Shown: one piece after another, positions 2,873 to 35,785 of the stretch
Position numbering within the stretch: position 1 is the first letter of the stretch
Layout: every line of letters starts with the position of its first letter
From: Thermoflexus hugenholtzii JAD2
GTDB taxonomy: Bacteria; Chloroflexota; UBA11872; UBA12225
NCBI GenBank assembly: GCA_945907765.1
Contig: CAMDTO010000006.1
Coordinates: 1 to 47,331 of the forward strand
Direction: 5' to 3'
DNA: 47,331 nucleotides
Notes under the pieces: generated by a model
Database searches by the model: none
What the model saw: the letters and a program-made list of their open reading frames with translations, nothing else
Told to the model about the DNA's origin: nothing
Made by a program: the position numbers and the translations under genes

Positions 2873-3793
2873 TCAGTTCGATGTTCCGAAGGTCACGCGC
2901 ACGCGTCCACGGAACGTGAGTTCACCGGACTGGACGGGCGTGGGCGGCCCGGCGGACGCTGCCAGGGCGCGCGGTGCGACCATGTCCGAGGTCTCCGGAC
3001 GGACAATCCCGCCGCCATCATCTGACGCCATCGCCACACCGGTCACCTTGATCCCGAGCCCCGAAGCGATTGCGTCTGCCTTGCCTCGCGCATCCGAAGC
3101 TGCCTGTTCAAGGGCCTGTCTGGTCACGTCGCGTTCGTTCCGCACCCCGAAACGCAGGTTCCCCGCGCTGTTGGCACCGGCATTGACGGCGGCGTCGTAG
3201 ATTTCGCCGGCTCGCGTGATGTCATCGATGGTCACCGAGACTTGGTTGATCGCCTCGTAGGATGAGATTGCAGGTGGGCGATTGTCACTTGGGGGTCGGG
3301 GCGTGAAGACCGGGTTGAGTGAAAGTCCCGATGTCCGGATCCCGGCACCCGGCACCCCGGCACGCTTGAGTGCATCGATGACCGCGTTTGCCTGTGTCGC
3401 GTTCAAGTCGGTCGCTTCGCGCGCCGTTCTTGCCTCCGTCCGGATGCCCATCGTCAGGTACGCGACATCCGGTTGGACCGTGACGGCGCTTTCCCCGGTC
3501 ACCGTGATCCCCGATGCCGTGGCGGTCTGGGGCGTGATCGGTGCAGCCGAAGCTACTCCCAACCACGTCGAGGCTTGATGTGGTGGCGCGTTGCTGGGGT
3601 CACCGACGTGCAATGACGCGTACGCGACACACGCCGTGACCGCGACAGTGACCGCGACCGAAAGCCCTCCCAGTCCGCGTGCGATTGGGCGCCACCAAGC
3701 TGGTAGCCCGCCGTATGCGTATCGTCGGGATGGTTCAGCGGAGGTGGTGATCGGTCGGAAATCTTGAGGCAATGTGCGCCGGACGTCTGACAT
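2873..3793 (-). CDS. SIMPL/DUF541 domain protein with N-terminal membrane anchor
   Basis: ITVTGESAVTVQPD, IRTSGLSLNP, AVNAGAN and ASDARGKADAIA are typical of SIMPL. Start chosen at MSDVRR (3793). Confidence 0.85.
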   Translation of the reverse strand: MSDVRRTLPQDFRPITTSAEPSRRYAYGGLPAWWRPIARGLGGLSVAVTVAVTACVAYASLHVGDPSNAPPHQASTWLGVASAAPITPQTATASGITVTGESAVTVQPDVAYLTMGIRTEARTAREATDLNATQANAVIDALKRAGVPGAGIRTSGLSLNPVFTPRPPSDNRPPAISSYEAINQVSVTIDDITRAGEIYDAAVNAGANSAGNLRFGVRNERDVTRQALEQAASDARGKADAIASGLGIKVTGVAMASDDGGGIVRPETSDMVAPRALAASAGPPTPVQSGELTFRGRVRVTFGTSN

Positions 3794-4083
3794 GCTGCGG
3801 TTCCTCGCGGTGGTTGTCGGTGTTCGACCAGTGAAGCGCAACAGGCAGACGGTACCAGTGTGCAACCCGGTTTGCCACATGCCCGGACGTCGCCTCGACG
3901 AAGGGTTCGGGTACCCTTGAGGTCGGGAAGTGCTACCAACGCGTCGCCTTGCGCGTTCTCCCAACCCTTCGTGTGGGTGATCGAAATGGCGGCTCAGACG
4001 GTGTTCCCGGTGGACCATATCCTCGTTCAGTCGTGTCCGGAAGGCGACGGTCGGGGGGTCTGGGAGCCAGGCTGGTTGGCGAG

Positions 4084-6558
4084 ATGACGGGAAGTGCGGC
4101 TCCAAGGCCACGGCCCGCCCGGCGCATCGGTCCGTACGAGATCCTCGAAACGGTCGGACGCGGTGGCAGCGCCGTGGTCTACCGTGCCCGCGACACCCGT
4201 GCCCGCGAAGCGATGGCAATCGGCGGTATCGGAGCGGTAGCGCCCGACAACGATGTCGCCCTCAAGCTGATCGCCGGCGCGTTCGCGGGATCAACCGAGT
4301 TCCGTGCCCGGTTCCGCCAAGAGGTCGACCTCATCCGGCGGTTGCGTCACCCCCACATCCTTTCGGTCTACGACAGTGGCGAGTCAGATGGATCTGACGA
4401 CGTGCCGCTAGGCCCGGATGGATCTATTCCGGGCGAACGTGCCCCCATTGATGCCAGCTTGGCGGGAGGCTACTCGTATCTCGTCACTGAATATTGCAGT
4501 GGTGGCAGCCTCGATGTGGCCATGCGTGCGCCCCGGAAGTTGCGCAACCGGTGCCGGCTTGCCGCTGCCATCGCGACCCAGATTGGCAGCGCCCTGGACG
4601 AGGCCCACGCGTCATCGGTCCTGCACCGGGACATCAAGCCATCCAACATCCTGCTTGCCTCCGGCGGGCGGTACGTCCTTGGGGATTTTGGCCTGGCGCG
4701 CGTCTTTGACACGGGAACCAGCCTGCACCTGACTGTCACCGGGTATGTGACCGGGACTCCGTCCTATATGGCGCCTGAACAGGCAAGTGGAGGTTCGGCT
4801 GACGGCCGGACGGACCTTTACGGTCTTGGTGTCGTGCTGTTCGAGATCATCGTGGGAGCTGTACCTTTCCGGGGCGAACAGGCGATGGCGATCATGCATG
4901 CCCAAGTGCACCAACCGGTGCCCCGGGCAGATGCGGTTGATCCTGCGGTTCCGGAGCGAGTGGCCGACGTTCTCTACCGTGCGCTCGCAAAATCGCGCGA
5001 AGCTCGCTACCCATCCGGACGGGCACTCGCGGCTGCGCTTGTCAAGGGCATCGTCGACTCCGGCATCCCGGTCCCTGAAAAGGCGGTCAATCCTGCAGGT
5101 GTCGCCACTGGCCCGGTCGATGGATCCACCAAGTTGGACGACGATCCATCGTCCCGCAATCCAATTGCTCGCGGATGGTCGCCATCACGCCTGGCACGCG
5201 GAGCCACGACGACGCTTCGCGGAACCCTTGCCCGGTGGTCGGTGCCGTTCCGGGTGGTTGCGGCCACTGCGCTGGTCCTCGCCTTGGCGACCGGAAGTCT
5301 TGCCATCTCCGGGAACGTGGACGGTCCGAACGGCGAAACCATTGCTTCATTGACCACCCGGGCACAGGCAATCCTGGCGGTCTGGCGCAGTGCCGACGAT
5401 GGCCCGAGCATCACCGAGGCGTTGATGCCCAGCGCCAGTCGCCCGGCTCCTTTGCGCCCGACCGTCACGGTGCGGTTCAGCCAACCCATGGACGTGGTCT
5501 CCGTCGAGACCAACCTTCGGTTCATTCCCGACGCCTCGGCGTTGTTTCCGGGCGGGAGCGCGGTCTCGCCGGTCCCGCTGGATTTCGAATGGAACGGCCA
5601 GTTGGTGGTCGTGATCCCGCGGTACGACCTGATGCCCTCCATGACCTATCTCGTCACCCTTGATGGTGGTGCCCGGAGTGTCGAGGGACGCGCACTTGTC
5701 CGCCCCTTGGATCATCGGTTCACCACGCGGTCGCTTTCGGAACCGACCCCGCCCGGCGGGGTAGTCGCGCCTCCGGAGCGGGTTGTCCCCGGGGTGACCG
5801 TTCCCACTGAGACCAGACGCACTCCGGTAGCGACATCTGTCCCGCCACGTCCCACGACAGGCACTGCGCCGACGGTGATCCGCACGACCGTCGCCGTGGC
5901 AACGGTCCCGAGGTCGCCAACGTCGGGGATCGCTGGTGCCGTCACTCCGGCCCAGTCCCCGGCTTCCGGCACCACCGTTCCAGACACTACTCCACGGTCT
6001 TCCACGTCCGATGGCACCACGCCGGCAGTCTCGACGCCCCGTTCGGTTCCAGATAGCCCCGGTGTGATCACCACGGTGACGGCAAGTCCGGATGGTGCGC
6101 GCGTGGAATCGGTGGGGCCCATGGGTACCGGGACCCCGCTCGTGCTTGTGACCACGCCATACGCGCCGGTAACCGGAACCGGGCCGGCCACGGTCACCCC
6201 CGTCCGGTTCCAAGGTTCTCCAACGCCAGTGGGGGCAACGCCGATTGGCGGTGGCACTCCGATCGGGTGGGCAGGCAACGTGTCGCCAACGACTGTCGGG
6301 GCGTCGTCCGGTGGATCACGCTCCCTGATGTCCCCGACACCTGCATCCGTCGGCGTCTACATCACGCCACCACCGACCGTGACAGGCGTTGCGCTCACGA
6401 TCGTCGCGGGAATCCTGCCGTCCCCCACTCTCGCCGGGGGTGGTGTGAACACGATTCCGGCGACCCCGTTGGTTCTGCCATCGCCGACGATTGCGCTGCT
6501 TGGCGCGCGCATCCCGGCCACTCCCACCGTTCCTGCGACACCGACAGGCACACCGTAG
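4084..6558 (+). CDS. Transmembrane Hanks-type Ser/Thr protein kinase with an extracellular Ig-like (Big_5-type) domain and a Pro/Thr-rich tail
   Basis: GRGGSAVVY, VALK, HRDIKPSNIL, DFGLAR and GTPSYMAPE; one TM helix; VTVRFSQPMD...YLVTLDG..FTT Ig-like signature; long PT-rich C-terminus. Start uncertain (ATG 4084). Confidence 0.9.
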   Translation: MTGSAAPRPRPARRIGPYEILETVGRGGSAVVYRARDTRAREAMAIGGIGAVAPDNDVALKLIAGAFAGSTEFRARFRQEVDLIRRLRHPHILSVYDSGESDGSDDVPLGPDGSIPGERAPIDASLAGGYSYLVTEYCSGGSLDVAMRAPRKLRNRCRLAAAIATQIGSALDEAHASSVLHRDIKPSNILLASGGRYVLGDFGLARVFDTGTSLHLTVTGYVTGTPSYMAPEQASGGSADGRTDLYGLGVVLFEIIVGAVPFRGEQAMAIMHAQVHQPVPRADAVDPAVPERVADVLYRALAKSREARYPSGRALAAALVKGIVDSGIPVPEKAVNPAGVATGPVDGSTKLDDDPSSRNPIARGWSPSRLARGATTTLRGTLARWSVPFRVVAATALVLALATGSLAISGNVDGPNGETIASLTTRAQAILAVWRSADDGPSITEALMPSASRPAPLRPTVTVRFSQPMDVVSVETNLRFIPDASALFPGGSAVSPVPLDFEWNGQLVVVIPRYDLMPSMTYLVTLDGGARSVEGRALVRPLDHRFTTRSLSEPTPPGGVVAPPERVVPGVTVPTETRRTPVATSVPPRPTTGTAPTVIRTTVAVATVPRSPTSGIAGAVTPAQSPASGTTVPDTTPRSSTSDGTTPAVSTPRSVPDSPGVITTVTASPDGARVESVGPMGTGTPLVLVTTPYAPVTGTGPATVTPVRFQGSPTPVGATPIGGGTPIGWAGNVSPTTVGASSGGSRSLMSPTPASVGVYITPPPTVTGVALTIVAGILPSPTLAGGGVNTIPATPLVLPSPTIALLGARIPATPTVPATPTGTP

Positions 6559-27882: not shown

Positions 27883-29100
27883 TTATTCCCCTCTCCCGGT
27901 TGCGGGGGAGGGGCTGTTTCTTTCCAGTGGGAGGCCTCGTGAGGCGTGTTGCACCGCCGTATCGCCTGACGCACCGACTGGTGTGAAACAGTCGCGAAGG
28001 GCAACAAGCGCGCCCAAGCCGAGCAGTGCCCCGATCCACACCGTGCACAGGCGGATGATCAGGGTTGCCGCACCGGCAACGGCGGGCGAGACCGTCCCGG
28101 TCAGGATCCCCGCAATCGTGGCCTCGGCCGCGCCGGCTCCACCCGGCATCAGTGAGACGGCCCCCGCGAGGGTGCCGGCGTTGAGTGCGGCGAGCGCGTA
28201 GCCGAGCAGGTCGAGATCCGCTGGAAGTCCGAACGCATGAAGTGCGTACCAGAGTGCAAGGCTTTCGGCGCCCCACGAGAGCAATCCCAGACCAAACGCC
28301 AACACAAGGCTTCGCACGTCAAAGATCATCGCGGCGCCATCCGCAGTGTCACGGATCCGGGACCCCGCCATCGCCACGACGCGTTGAGCGCGCGGATGGC
28401 TTGAGAGCTGTGTCCAGAGACCGGAGACCACTGTGGGAAGACGTACCCGTGTCCCGCCGAGCAGGGCGAGCAGGGAACATCCCGCCACCGTTCCGGCAAG
28501 CGTGATCGCCACCGGCCACGCGGTGTGCCAGATGATCGACAATCCGGTCCCGGTGAGCACGAAGACCGCAAACCCATCGGTTGCACGTTCGGCGAGGCTT
28601 ATCGGTGCCGCCCGCCACGCGTCCACCCCAGTCCTGCGACTCAGCAAGTAGGCCTTCAGGAATTCTCCGGTCTTCCCTGGGGTGACGGTCAGGGCGAAAC
28701 CGGCGATGAAGATCAGCGCACTTTCGGACAGCGTGGGGTACGCGCCAATCCGGTGGCAGTAGTAGTGCCACTTGCCGAACCGGATCGTCGCATTGACCGC
28801 GGTCAACCCGATCGCGATCGGGATGGCGTCCCACGCGAACGAGTCGAACGCTCCCGCCAACTTGTGCCAGTCACTCCACAAGCCGACGGCCACCGCCACG
28901 GCGATCGCAATCACCCCGCTCCACGCAATCTGTCGTGCGATGGACGCAAGCGATGACGGTGCGAATGAAACGCCAGACCCTCGCGCCGTCTGGTTTTCCA
29001 GGCCGTGCGAGGGTTGGTCCCGGGTTCCACCGGAAGGCGGAGAATCTGGGGGAAGGGGCGTGCCTACAGCGCCCCGTCCTTCGCTTCGATCTGGAGCCAC
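27883..29100 (-). CDS. Lysylphosphatidylglycerol-synthase TM / flippase-like (UPF0104) membrane protein
   Basis: R..KW, TPGKTGEFLK, ER.TD, PGGAGAAEA and IR...W motifs. Start uncertain. Confidence 0.85.
   Translation of the reverse strand: MAPDRSEGRGAVGTPLPPDSPPSGGTRDQPSHGLENQTARGSGVSFAPSSLASIARQIAWSGVIAIAVAVAVGLWSDWHKLAGAFDSFAWDAIPIAIGLTAVNATIRFGKWHYYCHRIGAYPTLSESALIFIAGFALTVTPGKTGEFLKAYLLSRRTGVDAWRAAPISLAERATDGFAVFVLTGTGLSIIWHTAWPVAITLAGTVAGCSLLALLGGTRVRLPTVVSGLWTQLSSHPRAQRVVAMAGSRIRDTADGAAMIFDVRSLVLAFGLGLLSWGAESLALWYALHAFGLPADLDLLGYALAALNAGTLAGAVSLMPGGAGAAEATIAGILTGTVSPAVAGAATLIIRLCTVWIGALLGLGALVALRDCFTPVGASGDTAVQHASRGLPLERNSPSPATGRGE
27888..27913. repeat. REP-like palindrome within the last codons of the UPF0104 gene, probably also a terminator between convergent genes
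   Basis: CCCCTCTCCC-GGTTGC-GGGGGAGGGG, a 10-bp stem including one G-T pair. Confidence 0.55.
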
Positions 29101-30623
29101 GACACGGTCACGAAGATGACGGTATACAGCGCGGTCAATTCTCCGACCGGCGCATCACCGAGGCGGTCTTGCGTCACGGACATCACCGTGCCAGTCAGCA
29201 GCGACACCACAACGAGCAAGGCACTCAGTCCACCACGTTCGCCGTGCATGAGCCATCGGCGGATTGCCACGGTCACTGCCGAAAGGAGACCGATGTACAC
29301 CCAGAACAGGTGTCGATCATTCGTCCATTCGAAGATTTCCATGATGGCTACGGTAGCGAACACCGCAAGGAAGCCGAATAGCATGTCTCGGTGGAACGTG
29401 TTTCCTTCGATGACCTCGCCCAGGGAGTTTTCCGTTCTCGTGTCACTGACCACCCGGAACAGCTTGATTGCCCTCAGGATCCTCAGGCCTTGGACGAATA
29501 CGACCCACTCGGGAAGTTCCCCTTCGCCAAGCAGTCCGACGAAGTCCGCGAGAACCACGAAGAAGGGCAGGATGGCTACCAGGTCGATGATGCCCCAGAT
29601 GCCGAGCAGGTAGTCACGTGATCGCTTCTGGAAAGATGCATTCAACACGTAGTCGATTGCAAAGAGGAGTGCAATCACTCCTTCGAGTGCGACGAAAATG
29701 GTGTGGGGGATGCCCTCAGCTTCCTCAGGAAACGTGAACCATGGCTCTCGCACGATTGCGGTTGCAGCAGCAGCTTCAGCGTCGGTCGGGGTCGGCGATG
29801 GTTCGGGCGTCGGTTGCGGTGTGACCGTCGGCAGTTCCGACACTGTCGTTGGTAGTGTCCGGTTGCGGGAAATTTCTTCCTGAACCACCTGCCGGATCGA
29901 GGTCAACGTGTCTGGTGTCGCGGTCGGTTCGACCGTCGCAGTCGGCTCAGGCAGGTCGGCCGGCACGAACGTCTTGAACTCAGGTGCGCCCTCGAGTACG
30001 AGCAGGAACAGGGAAATGGCTACAAGCCACGAAACCACATACGCATGGTGCGCCGAGTCTGATGTGCCATCGTGATGGTATGCGTGTGTGATGTACTCAC
30101 GGACGCGCGTTGTCCACGGAACATGCGGAACAACTGGCGCCTGGATTGGCACGGCCGCTGCCGGGGCACCTGCTGGATCGTCAACCTCGGCTTCCGCCTC
30201 GGCAGCGGGGCCAGTCTCCGCCTTGGGTTCAACCTTTGCGTCCTCGGTCGCGCTCCCGGTGTTCTGCTCGGGTGGTGCCCCGACTGCGGGACTGGCCGGC
30301 GTTGCCGTGTCGTTGGAAGGCGTCGTGGACTGGGACGACGGATCGCTTGAACTTCCCGATGCTGGGCCCGGTTGCGTTGATGCCATCGCTGGTGTGCCCT
30401 CCTGTGACCCCTGAACAGCCGGACTGGTCACGGTTGTGTCCGTCGAGACGCTGGCCCCCGCAACCGACGGCCGGCCTTCGTCGCCTGTCGCTTGGGGAAC
30501 CACCTCGTGTTCTTGGCCGTCTGGTGCCCCCTTTTGGGGATCAGACGGCTGACCACTCGCGCTTGGATCTGGTTTCTGATCAGGTGCAGACGCGTCCAGG
30601 CGCTGCCAGCGGGGAGGTTCCAC
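29064..30623 (-). CDS. Pore-less voltage-sensor-domain (Ion_trans S1-S4) membrane protein with four additional predicted TM helices
   Basis: S2 E...F.IDY, S3 IIDLVAILPFF and S4 LRILRAIKLFR; no GYG filter. Long disordered N-terminus. Start probably GTG 30623 (the ORF extends to 30704). Confidence 0.8.
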   Translation of the reverse strand: MEPPRWQRLDASAPDQKPDPSASGQPSDPQKGAPDGQEHEVVPQATGDEGRPSVAGASVSTDTTVTSPAVQGSQEGTPAMASTQPGPASGSSSDPSSQSTTPSNDTATPASPAVGAPPEQNTGSATEDAKVEPKAETGPAAEAEAEVDDPAGAPAAAVPIQAPVVPHVPWTTRVREYITHAYHHDGTSDSAHHAYVVSWLVAISLFLLVLEGAPEFKTFVPADLPEPTATVEPTATPDTLTSIRQVVQEEISRNRTLPTTVSELPTVTPQPTPEPSPTPTDAEAAAATAIVREPWFTFPEEAEGIPHTIFVALEGVIALLFAIDYVLNASFQKRSRDYLLGIWGIIDLVAILPFFVVLADFVGLLGEGELPEWVVFVQGLRILRAIKLFRVVSDTRTENSLGEVIEGNTFHRDMLFGFLAVFATVAIMEIFEWTNDRHLFWVYIGLLSAVTVAIRRWLMHGERGGLSALLVVVSLLTGTVMSVTQDRLGDAPVGELTALYTVIFVTVSWLQIEAKDGAL

Positions 30624-30642
30624 GTTCGTCTCGCCTTCCCGT

Positions 30643-31548
30643 CTAGGTCTTCGCTGCGATCTTGCGCCCGGTGGGGATGACGATTGCCGAATCACGGATG
30701 CCAATCACGTAGTCATCAGGCGGATTGATCCGCACCTGACGCTGGCCGCGGGCTTCCGCAAGAACGTCTTGCCCCGACTCCGCCAGCATTCGTTCGATGA
30801 AGCCCTGGACCCACCCGGTACCGGCTCCCATGACGTCATTCACCGACAGGCTTTCAGGGTCGCTGATGATCCCGATCACCAATTCGGCCCGCTCACTGCG
30901 GAACCATGCCCGGCACTCGGCCAAGTTCTTGTTCCAGAGTTCTTGGGGAACCACCTGCTTGCGGATCGCTTGCGCGCTACCGGCACCGAAGAGCTGTCGT
31001 GCCCCGGATCCGAGGCCAGGCGCGCGCGAAACGGCAACAAGGTAGAACGGCTGCCGGGTGTCGCGCACTTCGATTTCGCTCGCACCGGCATTCTTGATGT
31101 ACCCGGTCCGGCCAGGACTGACGACCTCGGCGACAATCGTTGCGTCCTTGTTCAACTCACGGACCGAGATCACGTACCGGAATGTCCGGTCGTCGGCGCC
31201 GGACAGGGCCCCTGCAATTTCGTCGGCGACGATGATGAGGGCCTTCGCCCCGGACGCGCCCGCTGACTGCAGGACTTCCTTCTCCGCCGGGCTTCCCTGT
31301 ATGTGGAGGAACGTTGGAGCCGAAAAGACGTTGCCGAGCGCGTCCTTGACGGAAATTGCGTCCTTGAGATCATCGAGTTGCTTCCCGATGTCTTCCGTAT
31401 CACCGACGTTCACGAAGATGATCGGCGCAGAAATCCCTGCGGTCGCGATCAAGGCCCGCGCAATCGCAGGAACACCCCGGTGCCAGCCGAGGACGAGGAA
31501 ATGTTCAGTCCAGGCCCGTGGTTCGCGTTGAACGTATCGCTGATCCAT
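30643..31548 (-). CDS. Soluble RCK (TrkA-N/C-like) gating-ring protein
   Basis: HFLVLGW, QGSPAEKEVLQSAGA..A..LIIVAD, IVAEV..., AGA and INPPDDYVI; no TM segments. Confidence 0.82.
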   Translation of the reverse strand: MDQRYVQREPRAWTEHFLVLGWHRGVPAIARALIATAGISAPIIFVNVGDTEDIGKQLDDLKDAISVKDALGNVFSAPTFLHIQGSPAEKEVLQSAGASGAKALIIVADEIAGALSGADDRTFRYVISVRELNKDATIVAEVVSPGRTGYIKNAGASEIEVRDTRQPFYLVAVSRAPGLGSGARQLFGAGSAQAIRKQVVPQELWNKNLAECRAWFRSERAELVIGIISDPESLSVNDVMGAGTGWVQGFIERMLAESGQDVLAEARGQRQVRINPPDDYVIGIRDSAIVIPTGRKIAAKT

Positions 31549-31745
31549 ACACCCGACCCTTCAACCGTCGCCGCCTAGTGCCGTGTGACACGTACCGACC
31601 GGCATTGTAATAGAAAGACCTCGGCTGCGGCCCATAGACCACTTGCGTGAATGCCCTGAAGAGATCCTTAAGACATCGTTCGCGTCGGCAGGCTATCATA
31701 GCGGCACGTTGCGTCAGGTGTCGTACCTGACCGTGGAGGGGTTTC

Positions 31746-33122
31746 ATGCGTGTCGCTCAGTCACCTCCCCTGACCCAGGGGCCCTCGTGGGTTCGTGGCT
31801 TCCTTGGCCTGTTTGGTCTCGGAAAGTCCGTAGCCGACGCACCTGCCGAACAGAAGAAGCCGGCCTCCCCACCCGTGCCAGGGGTTGTCGCACGGACGGC
31901 CAAGCAGGCAAGCGACACGCTGACCGGGGTTGGCGAAAGTGTTTCCGCGGTCTGGAACCTGGCCAACGACAACCGCCTGGCCCGCTACGTCATGATGATC
32001 GTGCTCTTCACGGTCGGTCTCGGCGTGGTTGTCTATTACATAGAACACTGGGCCGCACCGACGGGAATCAGCCTTGAGGGGGAATCAATCCAGATCACGA
32101 ACCTCGAACGCGGTCTCTGGTGGTCCATCGTCACGATGACGACCGTCGGCTACGGTGACTTGGTTCCCAAGACCACTCCGGGTCGGATCATCGGGTTCCT
32201 CACCATGCTTTCAGGAATGGGTCTCACCTCTCTTGTTACCGCAGCCTTTTCCAGCCTGTTGGTCGCCCAGGCGCTCGCAGCCGGAAGTGGCCTCGAGGCC
32301 ATCACGTCCGTTGGTCACACGCTCATCACCGGGTGGAATGACCGCGTCGAGGCGGTCATCCAGGGGTTGATCGCGTCGACCCCGGGTGGCAAGCCGGACA
32401 TTGTCCTGGTCAACCTGCTGGATCAGGAAAAATTGGCCGAACTCAAGTACAAGTATCGGCGGATCAACCTCCGGTTTGTCCGTGGTGACAGCACCAGCGA
32501 TCAGGTGCTCGAGCGCGCCGGAGTCGCCAAGGCTACCGGCTGCATTGTCATGGCGGACACCCTTGTTGCCCCAGGAGGCGAGGACCTGCGTTCCACTGTG
32601 ATCGTGCTGACGGCGAGCAAGATGAACTCGGACCTCAAGATCACCGCCGAACTCATGATGTCTGAGAACGAGGCTGACATCCGGCGCGTCGGTGTCAACG
32701 ACATCGTCCTTGCCGGTCAGGATGCCGGGTTCTTCATGTCTGCCGGTGCCCTTGCTCCCGGGCTTGGCAATGCCGCCCGCGAGATGCTCCGCGCGTCCGG
32801 GGAGGCCGAACTCCGTCGCATCGACTTTCCGCGCAACCTCCGGGGTTTGACCTACCTAGAGGTGTTTCAAGCCTACCGCCAGCAGAACATCCTGTTTGTC
32901 GGGCTCATTTCCGAGCGGATCAACGTGTCACTCGATGACCTCATGGGTCCTGGTACCGGATGGGTCTCCGGCCTCATCCGCCGGCTAATGGCGGAGGCGA
33001 GCTCCGAGATCCTTGGTCAGGATCAGGAAAAGATCCAGGTTCTCTGGGACCCGGGAGACGAGTACATCATCGGGACCACTGACGCCGCGCTTGTCATCAC
33101 GCAGCCACTCACGGTCACCTAG
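31746..33122 (+). CDS. 2-TM potassium channel with RCK domain (KcsA/MthK-like)
   Basis: TM - LWWSIVTMTTVGYGD.VPKT..GR - TM, then HTLITGW...RGDST...LERAGV RCK domain. Confidence 0.93.
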   Translation: MRVAQSPPLTQGPSWVRGFLGLFGLGKSVADAPAEQKKPASPPVPGVVARTAKQASDTLTGVGESVSAVWNLANDNRLARYVMMIVLFTVGLGVVVYYIEHWAAPTGISLEGESIQITNLERGLWWSIVTMTTVGYGDLVPKTTPGRIIGFLTMLSGMGLTSLVTAAFSSLLVAQALAAGSGLEAITSVGHTLITGWNDRVEAVIQGLIASTPGGKPDIVLVNLLDQEKLAELKYKYRRINLRFVRGDSTSDQVLERAGVAKATGCIVMADTLVAPGGEDLRSTVIVLTASKMNSDLKITAELMMSENEADIRRVGVNDIVLAGQDAGFFMSAGALAPGLGNAAREMLRASGEAELRRIDFPRNLRGLTYLEVFQAYRQQNILFVGLISERINVSLDDLMGPGTGWVSGLIRRLMAEASSEILGQDQEKIQVLWDPGDEYIIGTTDAALVITQPLTVT

Positions 33123-33202
33123 CATCGGATATCTTGGACAACACCTGTGTGGGGAGGAACTGACTCCCCACCGTACGGCTCCTCAAGGATCGGGAGGCAG
33201 AC

Positions 33203-33838
33203 ATGACCGCAACTCTTCCAGCAATCGTCACCCACAGGAACGGCCTGCGCATGGGCCCGCACAACTACGAAGAGTTCGACTACGCGAAGCTCGAGGAGTT
33301 CGGCCAGGACCCGGGCGAGCAGATGATGGACTGGGTCAGCCGGGGCAAGAAGGCGAACATGCTTGCCGAATTGACCGATGCCGAGATCGCGATGATCTTC
33401 ATCGGTGGTGAATTCTTCCACTACGAGCCCGGCGACGTCATCATCCCCTGGATGGACACCAAGGACAGCATGTTTGTCCTTCTGGCGGAGGGGCGCGTGA
33501 GGATCATCACGCCGATCATCCTGCCTCCACCGGTTGGAGACTGGCTCTCAGGTGAGAAGAGCCTTCTCGAATTGCCTGCCCCGCAGGTGGTTGGCCACTT
33601 CAACCTTCTTTCGAGTACCGTGCGCTCGGCGACCGTGGAAGCGATCATCCCGATGGACGCCATCGAAGTGCAGAAGAACTACCTTGACAAGTTGACCAAG
33701 ACCAACCAGCACGTCGGCGCGACGCTCTTCAAGAACATCGGACGCGCCCTTCAGGGCCAGTTGCGCTTCACCAACAACGACGTCCAGAACCTCACCGTCG
33801 CCGTCGCCCTTGCCTCGCGAGCCCTACGCAAGGGCTAG
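33203..33838 (+). CDS. Stand-alone cyclic-nucleotide-binding-domain protein
   Basis: L.ELTDAEI...YEPGDVII...SMFVL.EGRVRI...G.F.LL...RSATVEA; no HTH evident; GGAGG RBS. Confidence 0.8.
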   Translation: MTATLPAIVTHRNGLRMGPHNYEEFDYAKLEEFGQDPGEQMMDWVSRGKKANMLAELTDAEIAMIFIGGEFFHYEPGDVIIPWMDTKDSMFVLLAEGRVRIITPIILPPPVGDWLSGEKSLLELPAPQVVGHFNLLSSTVRSATVEAIIPMDAIEVQKNYLDKLTKTNQHVGATLFKNIGRALQGQLRFTNNDVQNLTVAVALASRALRKG

Positions 33839-33871
33839 GCCGAACGCATTGCCGCGTTGGCATGGACAAGT

Positions 33872-33897
33872 GAACGCCACCCGAAGGGGTGGCGTTC
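33872..33897. terminator. Probable bidirectional terminator hairpin between convergent genes
   Basis: GAACGCCACCC-GAAG-GGGTGGCGTTC, a perfect 11-bp stem. Confidence 0.7.
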
Positions 33898-33916
33898 TCG
33901 GTTTCCGGACGGTCCT

Positions 33917-35785
33917 CTAGACCCCAACCGGCCGGCCTGCTGGCAGGCGGAGGAAGTCGAAGTCGCATCCCTCAGGTGCCTGCGTCACGTGCAGTTGGTA
34001 GAGACGACGATACCCCCGTTCAAACGTCAGGGGTGCGGGTTTCCACTCGGCGCGGCGACGAGCGAGTTCGCCGTCCGGGACGTCCAGGTTCAGTCGACGG
34101 CCATCCACGTCAAGGTCGATCCAGTCGCCGTCCCGGACAAGGGCCAGGGGACCGCCAATCGCGCTTTCCGGGGCGATGTGCAGAACGACGGTGCCGTACG
34201 AGGTGCCGCTCATCCTTGCGTCGGAGATCCGCACCATGTCGCGAACCCCTTCCTGCAGGAGTTTCGCTGGAATCGGCATGAACCCCACCTCCGGCATTCC
34301 TGGCGCGCCGACCGGTCCGGCGTTCTGCAGCACCAGGATGCTGTCTGCGGTCACCGGGAGGTCCGGGTCGTCGATCCGTGCACGGAGGTCGTCGATTGAC
34401 CGGAACACGACCGCTTGCCCCCGGTGCTTCTGGAATCTGGGAGACGCGGCGATGTGCTTGATCACCGCGCCGTCCGGACACAGGTTCCCGCGCAGGATTG
34501 CGAGACCACCTTCCGGAGAACGCGGTTCCTCTCGGGAGGCAATCACGTCACGGCGCCGTGCGACACGGAAGCGTTCAAGGTTCTCGCCGACCGTCGACCC
34601 GGTAACGGTCATAGCCTCGTGGCGGAGGAGGGGCGCGAGTTCCTTCATGACCGCTGGCACCCCGCCGGCGTCGAACAGTTCCTCCATCTGGAACTCACCC
34701 GACGGCTTGAGGTTCACCAGCCATGGGGTCTGGCGGGAGAGTTCGTCAAACCGGTCGAGTGGCACCGGAATTCCAAGGCGTCCGGCAATCGCCACGAGAT
34801 GGACGACCGCGTTGGTCGATCCACCAAGGGCCATCAGCACGCGGATGGCGTTCTCGAATGCCGCCTCGGTCATGATGTGTGATGGGCGCAGTCCCGTGCG
34901 TGCGAGGCGCACCGCCTGACGGCCACTCATCTCGGCGAATTGCAACCGGCGGCTGTCCGGTGCCGGTATGGCGGCGTTGCCGGGCAACGCCATGCCAAGC
35001 GCTTCGGCCATGCTTGCCATTGTTGACGCGGTGCCCATCACCATGCATGAGCCCGCCGAACGGCAAATCGCATCTTCAATGGCGGTGTATTCGTCGGCGT
35101 CGATCGTTCCCGCCCGGAGTTCCGCGGTGTACTTCCCGCAGTCCGTGCAGGCCCCCAGGTCCTTGCCGTCGTGACGACCATTGAGCATCGGGCCACCGGA
35201 AATCATGATTGCGGGGACATCCGCCGACGCCGCACCCATCAGCGCCGCCGGCGTCGTCTTGTCGCATCCGGCGAGGAGCACGACCGCGTCCATCGGTTGG
35301 GCGCGGATCATCTCCTCGGTATCCATTGCCATCAAGTTGCGGAATAGCATTGATGTGGGTTGCGTGTGCACCTCGCCGAGCGAAATGGTCGGAAACTCCA
35401 GCGGGAACCCGCCTTCCTGCCACACGCCCCGCTTGACCGCTTCGGCAAGTTGGCGGAAGTGGTTGTTGCAGTTGTTGAACTCCGACCACGTCTGTGCAAT
35501 GCCGATGACAGGTTTGGTCAGGTCCTCCTGGGTAAACCCCATCGCCTTGGTGAAGGCACGCCCGGTGAACCCGGATGGGGTGCCTCGTTCGCCAAAGAAC
35601 CGTGCACTGCGCCCCAGGGCCGGCGCGCCATCCGCCATTGTGTCCGGCGCCGTCCCGGAGTCGGACGCCGTGCGCTTGGGCAATCCCTCCGCGCCAAGTG
35701 GTGCGTCTCCGCGGGCAGGATTGCGAGGGTCGTCATTGCCTTGGGCGTTGCGGTCTGCTGGTGGTGGGCCGTACATGATGCTCAC
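33917..35785 (-). CDS. IlvD/Edd family dehydratase (probably a sugar-acid dehydratase)
   Basis: KPVIGIA.TWSE.N.CN, GCDKTTP, G.C.VMGTASTM, GGSTN, SDARMSGT and HIAPES. Start uncertain (N-terminal extension). Confidence 0.93.
   Translation of the reverse strand: MSIMYGPPPADRNAQGNDDPRNPARGDAPLGAEGLPKRTASDSGTAPDTMADGAPALGRSARFFGERGTPSGFTGRAFTKAMGFTQEDLTKPVIGIAQTWSEFNNCNNHFRQLAEAVKRGVWQEGGFPLEFPTISLGEVHTQPTSMLFRNLMAMDTEEMIRAQPMDAVVLLAGCDKTTPAALMGAASADVPAIMISGGPMLNGRHDGKDLGACTDCGKYTAELRAGTIDADEYTAIEDAICRSAGSCMVMGTASTMASMAEALGMALPGNAAIPAPDSRRLQFAEMSGRQAVRLARTGLRPSHIMTEAAFENAIRVLMALGGSTNAVVHLVAIAGRLGIPVPLDRFDELSRQTPWLVNLKPSGEFQMEELFDAGGVPAVMKELAPLLRHEAMTVTGSTVGENLERFRVARRRDVIASREEPRSPEGGLAILRGNLCPDGAVIKHIAASPRFQKHRGQAVVFRSIDDLRARIDDPDLPVTADSILVLQNAGPVGAPGMPEVGFMPIPAKLLQEGVRDMVRISDARMSGTSYGTVVLHIAPESAIGGPLALVRDGDWIDLDVDGRRLNLDVPDGELARRRAEWKPAPLTFERGYRRLYQLHVTQAPEGCDFDFLRLPAGRPVGV

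Follow-up and report, generated by a model that had tools for sequence, protein, structure and literature searches.

A conserved four-gene locus of lake Chloroflexota that may encode a multi-subunit, ligand-gated potassium channel

We analysed a 47,331-nucleotide stretch of DNA (the window), which corresponds to contig C6 of a metagenome-assembled genome from the Chloroflexota (G000; 3.3 Mb, 270 contigs, 87% complete). Positions 29064-33838 of this window contain four open reading frames (ORFs) in two divergent pairs, all present where a first-pass annotation of the sequence had placed them, which may together specify a K+ channel whose parts are encoded by separate genes. The leftward pair comprises the gene for a soluble RCK protein (sRCK: 30643-31548, minus strand, 301 residues; Pfam TrkA_N) and the gene for a pore-less, Kv-derived voltage-sensor protein (29064-30704, minus strand, 546 residues when read from a TTG codon; Pfam Ion_trans and an AlphaFold2 (AF2) model compared by VIA-align). 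The rightward pair codes for pore-RCK, which consists of a K+ pore with two transmembrane (TM) helices and a C-terminal RCK domain (31746-33122, plus strand, 458 residues; Pfam Ion_trans_2 and TrkA_N), and for a stand-alone protein with a cyclic-nucleotide-binding domain (CNBD protein: 33203-33838, plus strand, 211 residues; Foldseek and the Pfam scores of its orthologs). A divergent promoter region of 197 bp separates the two pairs (31549-31745; promoter scan and ends of RNA contigs), and a hairpin with an 11-bp G+C-rich stem follows the CNBD gene (33872-33897; sequence and folding z-score). The module identities proposed in the first-pass annotation, namely RCK, voltage sensor, pore-RCK and CNBD, were borne out by Pfam, by AF2/VIA and by Foldseek.

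The pore-RCK protein matches the Pfam families Ion_trans_2 (53.8 bits), TrkA_N (39.7 bits) and Slo-like_RCK (25.2 bits), each above its cut-off. The selectivity filter TTVGYGD (32139-32159) is located between the two TM helices. In an alignment of six orthologs this filter reads TTVGYGD in four and TTTGYGD in two. Among solved structures, a sequence search of the PDB matched KcsA to the pore and MthK to residues 123-333 (E ~3e-10). The NCBIfam model of Kch (PRK10537) was also found (E 1.1e-18), but the match does not reach the cut-off of that model. When the tethered RCK domain was searched alone, the best PDB sequence matches were all weak (DMI1, E 4.3e-4; CASTOR, 1.4e-3; the RCK domain of Kch, 1id1, 1.7e-3), and the match to DMI1 and CASTOR includes the motif H-x-L-I-x-G-W-x-D. 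RCK domains of the KtrA/TrkA type bind dinucleotides through a GxGxxG motif. This motif was not found in the two RCK domains of the locus, which read I-T-G-W-N-D-R-V (tethered) and V-L-G-W-H-R-G-V (soluble), and the NCBIfam TrkA models score no more than 12-13 bits against them. Since residues 158-269 of pore-RCK contain no methionine, the linker lacks an internal ATG from which an MthK-like soluble RCK could be translated, although a soluble form might start at a GTG or TTG codon. At the other end of the protein, residues 1-28 (31746-31830) contain the conserved motif G-P-S-W-V-R-G/A-F-L-G-L-F/L-G (SWVRGFLGLFG in the window), followed by a variable linker. According to PMC2573919, the N-terminus of MthK contains a desensitisation segment, and by analogy the N-terminal motif of pore-RCK might be a segment of this kind.

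The soluble protein sRCK matches TrkA_N with 31.6 bits (cut-off 23.8), while its sequence found no PDB entry at E<=0.01. Searches by tblastn and blastp identified sRCK and the tethered RCK domain as paralogs with 31% identity over 277 residues, and the two have a C-terminal subdomain with the motif G-x-G-T-G-W-V in common. Each of them has its own ortholog in genome G011 at 58-59% identity. Therefore, the duplication that gave rise to the two RCK domains predates the genera discussed below. Gating rings of the MthK/Kch type require additional soluble copies of the RCK domain, and the second gene would do here what an internal start does in MthK and what a second in-chain RCK does in BK and GsuK. 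We consider it likely that the locus encodes a conserved module for an RCK-gated K+ channel, in which the second RCK has a gene of its own.

The second leftward protein matches Ion_trans with an E value of 4.6e-8 (33 bits; cut-off 25). Its residues 332-468 align with profile positions 32-169 of 241, which correspond to S2 to S5, and the pore part is absent. Translation probably starts at a GTG codon at 30622, which follows the ribosome-binding site GGGAAGG and lies 21 nt past the sRCK stop codon. The first-pass annotation described the product as a pore-less S1-S4 protein. The protein is indeed pore-less and contains S1-S4, but it does not consist of these helices alone: a disordered N-terminus of ~190 residues is followed by S1-S4, S5 and three further helices, or ~8 TM helices in total. 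The N-terminal region is truly coding, because mismatches to orthologs are distributed as 23/29/61 over codon positions 1/2/3 and the two gaps are 9 nt each. A Pro/Thr-rich insert of ~90 residues between S1 and S2 (29700-29985, residues ~240-335) occurs in this genus and is missing from the G011 ortholog and from other family members.

The voltage-sensor assignment is further supported by structure comparison. Residues 3-225 of the AF2 model align with the sensors of Kv4.2, Kv1.2 and Kv2.1 (VIA-align: Z 12-13, root-mean-square deviation 3.3-3.8 A, 130-136 residues), and the sensor of Ci-VSP aligns with Z 11.0. A Foldseek search of the PDB with this model returned nothing at E<=0.001; its top rows were Kv channels with E values of 0.27 and above. 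The C-terminal helices matched generic helical bundles only, and we assigned no fold to them. The best score in the ESM Atlas was 0.86, below the 0.9 level, with clusters that were unannotated or labelled Ion_trans, and we made no use of this result. The S4 helix VVFVQGLRILRAIKLFRVV (29448-29504, minus strand) contains the pattern R-x-x-R-x-x-K-x-x-R with a charge at every third position. In the family alignments R214, R217 and R223 of S4 are invariant or nearly so, and the same is true of the motif E-x7-F-x2-D in S2 and of the Asp in S3, countercharges with a spacing that we take to equal that of the Shaker charge-transfer centre. Helix 6, LFWVYIGLLSAVTVAIRRW (29253-29309, minus strand), aligns with the pore helix of Kv channels and ends in a conserved RRW, with no filter after it. 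Opposite the residues GYGDMTPQ of the normal Kv channel P0034 (filter TVGYGD) the sensor protein shows an eight-column gap, and none of ten aligned family sequences (the window protein, its ortholog from G011 and eight of the search representatives) contains G-Y-G. Lacking a filter, this protein cannot be a conventional K+ conductor.

To place this protein in a family we searched 1.84 billion representatives (50% identity level) with HMMER. Of 79 matches at E<=0.001, 10 reach through the C-terminal domain. In most of the ten aligned sequences, helix 6 is followed by R-R-W and the chain ends with the motif S-W-L-x-I-E-x-x-x-G-x-L; within the C-terminal four-helix membrane domain, R288, W290, D319 and E346 are invariant or nearly so. 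A sample of 400 further genomes from the phylum yielded no full-length member: the matches all end in or just past the sensor and are ordinary 6-TM channels. The protein of the window thus belongs to a rare Kv-derived, pore-less family whose sensor appears functional. We call the block's own lineage of the family subfamily A. A more distant group (subfamily B, P0048/P0036-like) comprises proteins on contig C240 of G011 and contig C249 of G010 as well as fragments in G006. In the lineage that carries the four-gene block (8 genomes and close metagenome contigs), the sensor gene follows that for sRCK on every contig long enough to show it. The subfamily B protein of G011:C240 (L063, 6660-8594) is 644 residues long; ahead of its sensor lie two zinc-ribbon-like C-x-x-C...C-x-x-C repeats and an extended stretch rich in Pro and Ala. 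Its gene has Band_7 (SPFH) and PMT_2 glycosyltransferase genes as neighbours.

The identity of the CNBD protein rests on its predicted fold and on its relatives. The window protein scores 21.8 bits against cNMP_binding (PF00027), below the cut-off of 27.5, whereas its G011 ortholog (37.2 bits) and a relative in G010 (32.4 bits) score above it. The AF2 model (mean pLDDT 61.6) gave at least 496 Foldseek matches in the PDB at E<=0.001, the best at 1.3e-7. Every listed match is a CNBD, including the domains of MloK1, SthK, HCN and CNG channels. A search of the PDB by sequence gave a best E value of only 0.099. The phosphate-binding cassette (~33593-33643) reads G-H-F-N-L-L-S-S-T-V-R-S-A-T-V. In five of five aligned sequences G131 and R141-S-A-T-V are invariant, and the protein also contains a 15-residue insert, I-L-P-P-P-V-G-D-W-L-S-G-E-K-S. 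The subfamily is small (14 clusters). Among 41 related genomes, it adjoins an RCK gene in all nine full-length matches. An association of the CNBD protein with the channel is plausible. None of five matches in longer proteins shows a fusion to an RCK or pore domain (four carry TPR-type repeats), which is weak evidence. Genome G000 contains three class III cyclase domain matches above the Pfam cut-off. One of the nine CNBD genes beside an RCK gene lies at L028 (G010:C204, 5250-6981), where the soluble RCK probably starts at an internal Met (~285 residues) and the adjacent genes encode a TPR protein and YidC.

The first-pass annotation had suggested a search for co-occurrence of all four genes in other genomes. 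Among the 41 related genomes, full-length orthologs of pore-RCK are present in G000, G002, G003 and G004 (genus g1), in G007, G012 and G013 (g4) and in G011 (g8). Seven of these genomes, from three genera, have the four genes side by side with unchanged order and orientation (G000, G002, G003, G004, G007, G012 and G011). In G013 the block is spread over two contigs. Three metagenome contigs (L140, L141 and L146) carry the same block, and partial contigs are consistent with it. Genera g1 and g4 also share the flanking genes, with a dehydratase on one side and flippase-like and enolase-family genes on the other, and for this reason the comparison of g1 with g4 says little. In G011, which represents the most distant genus, the block is still contiguous (three proteins are 56-59% identical to those of the window, the sensor protein 36%), and it is flanked by a histidine kinase gene on one side and a gene for an unknown protein on the other. 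The G011 orthologs of the flanking genes in G000 lie elsewhere, the dehydratase on contig C324 (69% identity) and the flippase-like protein on C34 (58%), so that both breakpoints coincide with the borders of the block.

Transcription of the locus could be followed in lake metatranscriptomes. Six runs each contain between 56% and 93% of the words sampled from the locus, and RNA contigs from four runs of four studies (X2, X16, X17 and X18) were aligned to it. In X2 one RNA contig extends over 28790-31673 and includes the 5' part of the flippase-like gene, the sensor gene and the sRCK gene, while another extends over 31715-33781 and includes pore-RCK and CNBD. At the promoter region, RNA contigs end at 31671 (X16), 31668 (X17) and 31681 (X18), and others start at 31743 (X17) and 31719 (X18); several contig ends run into sequencing adapter. 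The depth in X2 is 39-44 within the locus as opposed to 0-3 in the flanking bins 28202-28669 and 33818-34500, which argues against plain DNA carry-over. In some runs, RNA cover is low or absent over 27968-28669, which is most of the flippase-like gene, and past 33818. One X16 contig skips 31861-31979; since its shorter side is 26 letters, we took this as noise. These data support transcription of the four genes as two divergent units.

The 41 nt left uncovered between the two X2 contigs contain the palindrome GCTATCATAGC (31692-31702), a perfect repeat of 5+1+5. Read on either strand, this element provides a -10-like hexamer (TATCAT or TATGAT) with a -35-like partner. It is unique in the window (0.16 occurrences expected by chance) and conserved in four of five aligned orthologous regions (G000, G002, G012 and G007, not G011). 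The palindrome could also serve as an operator for a dimeric regulator. Next to it lies a conserved stem (31713-31731), within which RNA contigs start (31715 and 31719); on this ground we set aside the idea of a 5'-UTR element. At the opposite end of the rightward pair, the hairpin GAACGCCACCC-GAAG-GGGTGGCGTTC is flanked by the CNBD and dehydratase genes, which are convergent. The 101 nt around it fold with -49.1 kcal/mol (z -4.0), and none of 200 shuffled sequences folded as well, so the strong closing hairpin described in the first-pass annotation exists as such. It is not followed by a T-run, and the terminator scan of the window did not list it.

As the best explanation for these findings we tentatively favour, with slightly less than even confidence, a multi-subunit ligand-gated K+ channel module that is encoded by two divergent units with a shared promoter region. 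The rightward unit would provide a K+ pore of four 2-TM subunits, all bearing an RCK domain of the MthK/Kch/CASTOR type, and the CNBD protein would be made together with it. The leftward unit would provide sRCK, which we infer to pair with the tethered RCK domains and thereby to complete a hetero-octameric gating ring. The CNBD protein would most likely dock on this ring and add a cyclic-nucleotide input. The leftward unit would also provide the Kv-derived pore-less voltage-sensor protein. This protein appears to be co-regulated with sRCK and probably works with the module, and it might gate the pore. Voltage sensing in trans as such seems unlikely to us. In this picture the domain identities, the conservation of the block and its transcription are shown by the data; the hetero-ring, the docking of the CNBD protein and any coupling to the sensor are our proposals.

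Several findings weigh against this explanation. All co-occurrence of the four genes comes from one bacterial family (14 genomes) and, within it, from three genera and effectively two independent flank contexts. RNA contigs do not prove single transcripts or exact ends, and RNA libraries may carry DNA. G011 contains a paralog of pore-RCK (contig C76, 38% identity) that stands alone, with no sRCK, sensor or CNBD gene nearby. This lone paralog also lacks a methionine in the linker, and the missing internal ATG is therefore weak evidence that pore-RCK needs a partner. The canonical phosphate-binding cassette of a CNBD reads Gly-Glu ... Arg-Ser/Thr-Ala. In the window protein the position of the canonical Glu is occupied by His, as in four of the five aligned sequences, and the fifth has Ala. 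In G010 a gene pair for a soluble RCK and a CNBD protein, with overlapping stop and start codons, occurs without an adjacent pore gene. The low identity of the G011 sensor protein compared to the other three indicates a looser or different constraint on the sensor. Finally, where sensor-family genes occur elsewhere than in the block, their visible flanks lack genes for RCK, pore or CNBD proteins, be it within ~8 kb on each side (G011:C240), on a 5.9-kb contig (G010:C249) or on a 2.3-kb metagenome contig (L147). The protein encoded on L147 is closer to subfamily A, and its gene sits behind a divergent sugar-acid dehydratase gene rather than behind an RCK gene. Hence, the sensor family is apparently able to work without this channel.

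Two further explanations rank equally behind it. According to the first, which is the full interpretation of the first-pass annotation, all four proteins form one complex in which the sensor protein docks either to the outside of the 2-TM pore or, like the sensor of BK on RCK1, to the RCK ring, and gates the channel by voltage in trans, in addition to the inputs from RCK and cNMP. The sensor machinery is intact (R/R/K/R in S4, countercharges in S2 and S3) in a Kv-derived protein that has lost its filter. In the block lineage its gene keeps its place behind sRCK, and the two genes share an RNA contig. Moreover, sensor, pore and RCK form one chain in Kch, whose model PRK10537 is matched by pore-RCK below the cut-off. 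As the first-pass annotation also noted, engineered KCNH channels that are split between sensor and pore still gate (PMC4389246). On the other hand, S5 and the three additional helices would be superfluous in a simple peripheral sensor, there are sensor-family members without a channel neighbour in their visible flanks, and the sensor diverges faster than the other three proteins. Complex prediction with four copies of the pore domain (residues 60-186) and the sensor protein gave 0.00 in both runs, but since the controls did not fold either, this result counts neither way. On balance we regard such a complex as improbable. The corresponding description of the locus, a natural K+ channel made from four gene products with a filterless, Kv-derived, detachable sensor, a 2-TM pore, a ring from two RCK paralogs and a free CNBD, is doubtful to the same degree.

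According to the second explanation, which we also rate as rather unlikely, the promoter region is shared by two separate machines. One would be a K+ channel made of pore-RCK and the CNBD protein and gated by cNMP and ligand. The other would consist of sRCK and the 8-TM sensor protein, in some genera together with the flippase-like protein. Here an RCK ring would regulate the sensor protein in the way KtrA and TrkA regulate KtrB and TrkH, and the sensor protein would itself act in transport or signalling. Such a pairing of the genes agrees with the operon structure, and the conserved C-terminal membrane domain and extreme C-terminus of the sensor protein suggest that it has a function of its own. 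Its relatives outside the block stand without nearby channel genes, and the pair in G010 combines a soluble RCK with a CNBD protein in the absence of an adjacent pore. Gating of separate membrane subunits by soluble RCK proteins is well established, examples being the TM1088A/B TrkA ring (PMC4380455) and KtrA (PMC6957272). However, sRCK is a paralog of the tethered RCK and has the same unusual C-terminal subdomain, which fits heterodimerisation within one ring, and the block remained intact despite the change of both flanks. Furthermore, the out-of-block sensor genes have no RCK gene beside them, so that an RCK partner is no general need of the sensor family.

Less likely again is a merely inherited neighbourhood, in which only pore-RCK functions at this locus, the sensor, the CNBD protein and perhaps sRCK act elsewhere, and the arrangement persists through the close kinship of the three genera: the restriction to one family of 14 genomes, the flanks conserved between g1 and g4 and a lineage so rich in ion-channel genes (six matches to the sensor profile in G000) that some adjacency is less surprising would all agree with it, but the G011 flanks were exchanged exactly at the block borders, intergenic distances are short, start and stop overlap in the RCK-CNBD pair of G010, the X2 RNA depth is alike on both sides (a poor measure), and the CNBD subfamily stands beside an RCK gene in every full-length match.

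Outside the four genes, a flippase-like gene (LPG_synthase_TM; 27883-29100, minus strand; Pfam 141.7 bits, TIGR00374) overlaps the sensor stop codon by 37 nt with its start and is adjacent to the sensor gene in the g1 and g4 loci. The leftward unit may thus have a fifth gene, though in these two genera only. Related genomes contain further channel-like genes elsewhere. In G003 two ORFs (L237, G003:C1:10500-17000; ORFs 710-2824 and 3640-5907) encode proteins of 705 and 756 residues, each with two S4 motifs and two filters of the T-T-G-Y-G-D type. Similar double-channel ORFs occur in G007:C59, G012:C609 and G013:C86, several of them in tandem, and one ORF in G007 codes for 1111 residues. Judged by these motifs, such proteins look like tandem (sensor-pore)x2 K+ channels and resemble two-pore channels. 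In G000 itself, an ORF on contig C17 (L235, 1270-3252, minus strand, 661 residues) matches the sensor profile twice and has three S4-like motifs but no canonical filter, and an ORF at the end of contig C21 (L236) reads filter-sensor-filter.

If the parts do assemble, nature would have its own version of the split KCNH channels that were engineered. The locus would then offer a tractable bacterial system for the coupling of a sensor, an RCK ring and a CNBD to a pore without covalent links. A channel made from all four gene products would also illustrate, in a living organism, how sensor, pore and cytoplasmic ligand domains are thought to have been joined in 6-TM channels, or the reverse of that process. 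The organism belongs to an abundant Chloroflexota lineage of lake water, and the genes of the locus are present in metatranscriptomes, so their function is probably in use in nature. The first-pass annotation knew of no description of this combination, and the available text of the open-access literature (including PMC13095418) likewise yielded neither a natural channel split in this way nor a pore-less Kv-derived family from bacteria. Within the same text, two elements appear to be undescribed: an MthK-like channel with a divergently transcribed, separate paralog as second ring subunit, and a bacterial Kv-derived sensor family with a deleted filter (~10 representatives).

The closest known systems for the channel part are MthK and Kch, which have in common with this locus a K+ pore with a canonical filter and, after it, an RCK domain. 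MthK produces its soluble RCK from an internal start and hence with the same sequence as the tethered domain, while at this locus it would come from a separate paralogous gene with 31% identity on the opposite strand. Kch, too, makes its soluble RCK from the gene of the channel. Kch carries its voltage-sensor-like S1-S4 in the same chain, whereas here the sensor has its own gene. The term "soluble RCK" occurs in PMC13563188 and PMC2573919. In BK channels, voltage sensor, pore and ring act together, and the rings of BK and GsuK are built from two different RCK domains (PMC6763263 and PMC3510474). However, all parts of BK (Slo1) and GsuK reside on one polypeptide, while at this locus they are distributed over up to three or four genes. 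The plant proteins CASTOR, POLLUX and DMI1, which are the nearest PDB sequences to the tethered RCK, though by weak matches, differ in their membrane part and in having two tandem RCK domains.

In KtrAB and TrkAH a membrane pathway for K+ is gated, as proposed here, by soluble RCK proteins with genes of their own. The RCK domains of those systems contain GxGxxG in place of T-G-W-N-D-R or L-G-W-H-R-G, and their membrane partners are not of the channel type. The membrane partner at this locus is predicted to be a true tetrameric channel that already bears an RCK domain. A precedent for a ring made from two gene products is TM1088A/B (PMC4380455). MloK1, SthK and HCN combine sensor and CNBD on one transport protein with the CNBD covalently attached, in contrast to the free 211-residue protein encoded here. 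That a sensor and a CNBD can also govern a protein that is not a channel is illustrated by SLC9C1 (PMC6052114). Hv1, Ci-VSP and TMEM266 resemble the sensor protein in that their chain contains S1-S4 but no K+ pore. These proteins are eukaryotic, whereas the family described here is bacterial, has kept S5 together with a remnant pore helix, and carries two additional helices. Finally, the split KCNH channels, which gate without a covalent link (PMC4389246), were engineered, while the split proposed for the Chloroflexota locus would be a natural one.

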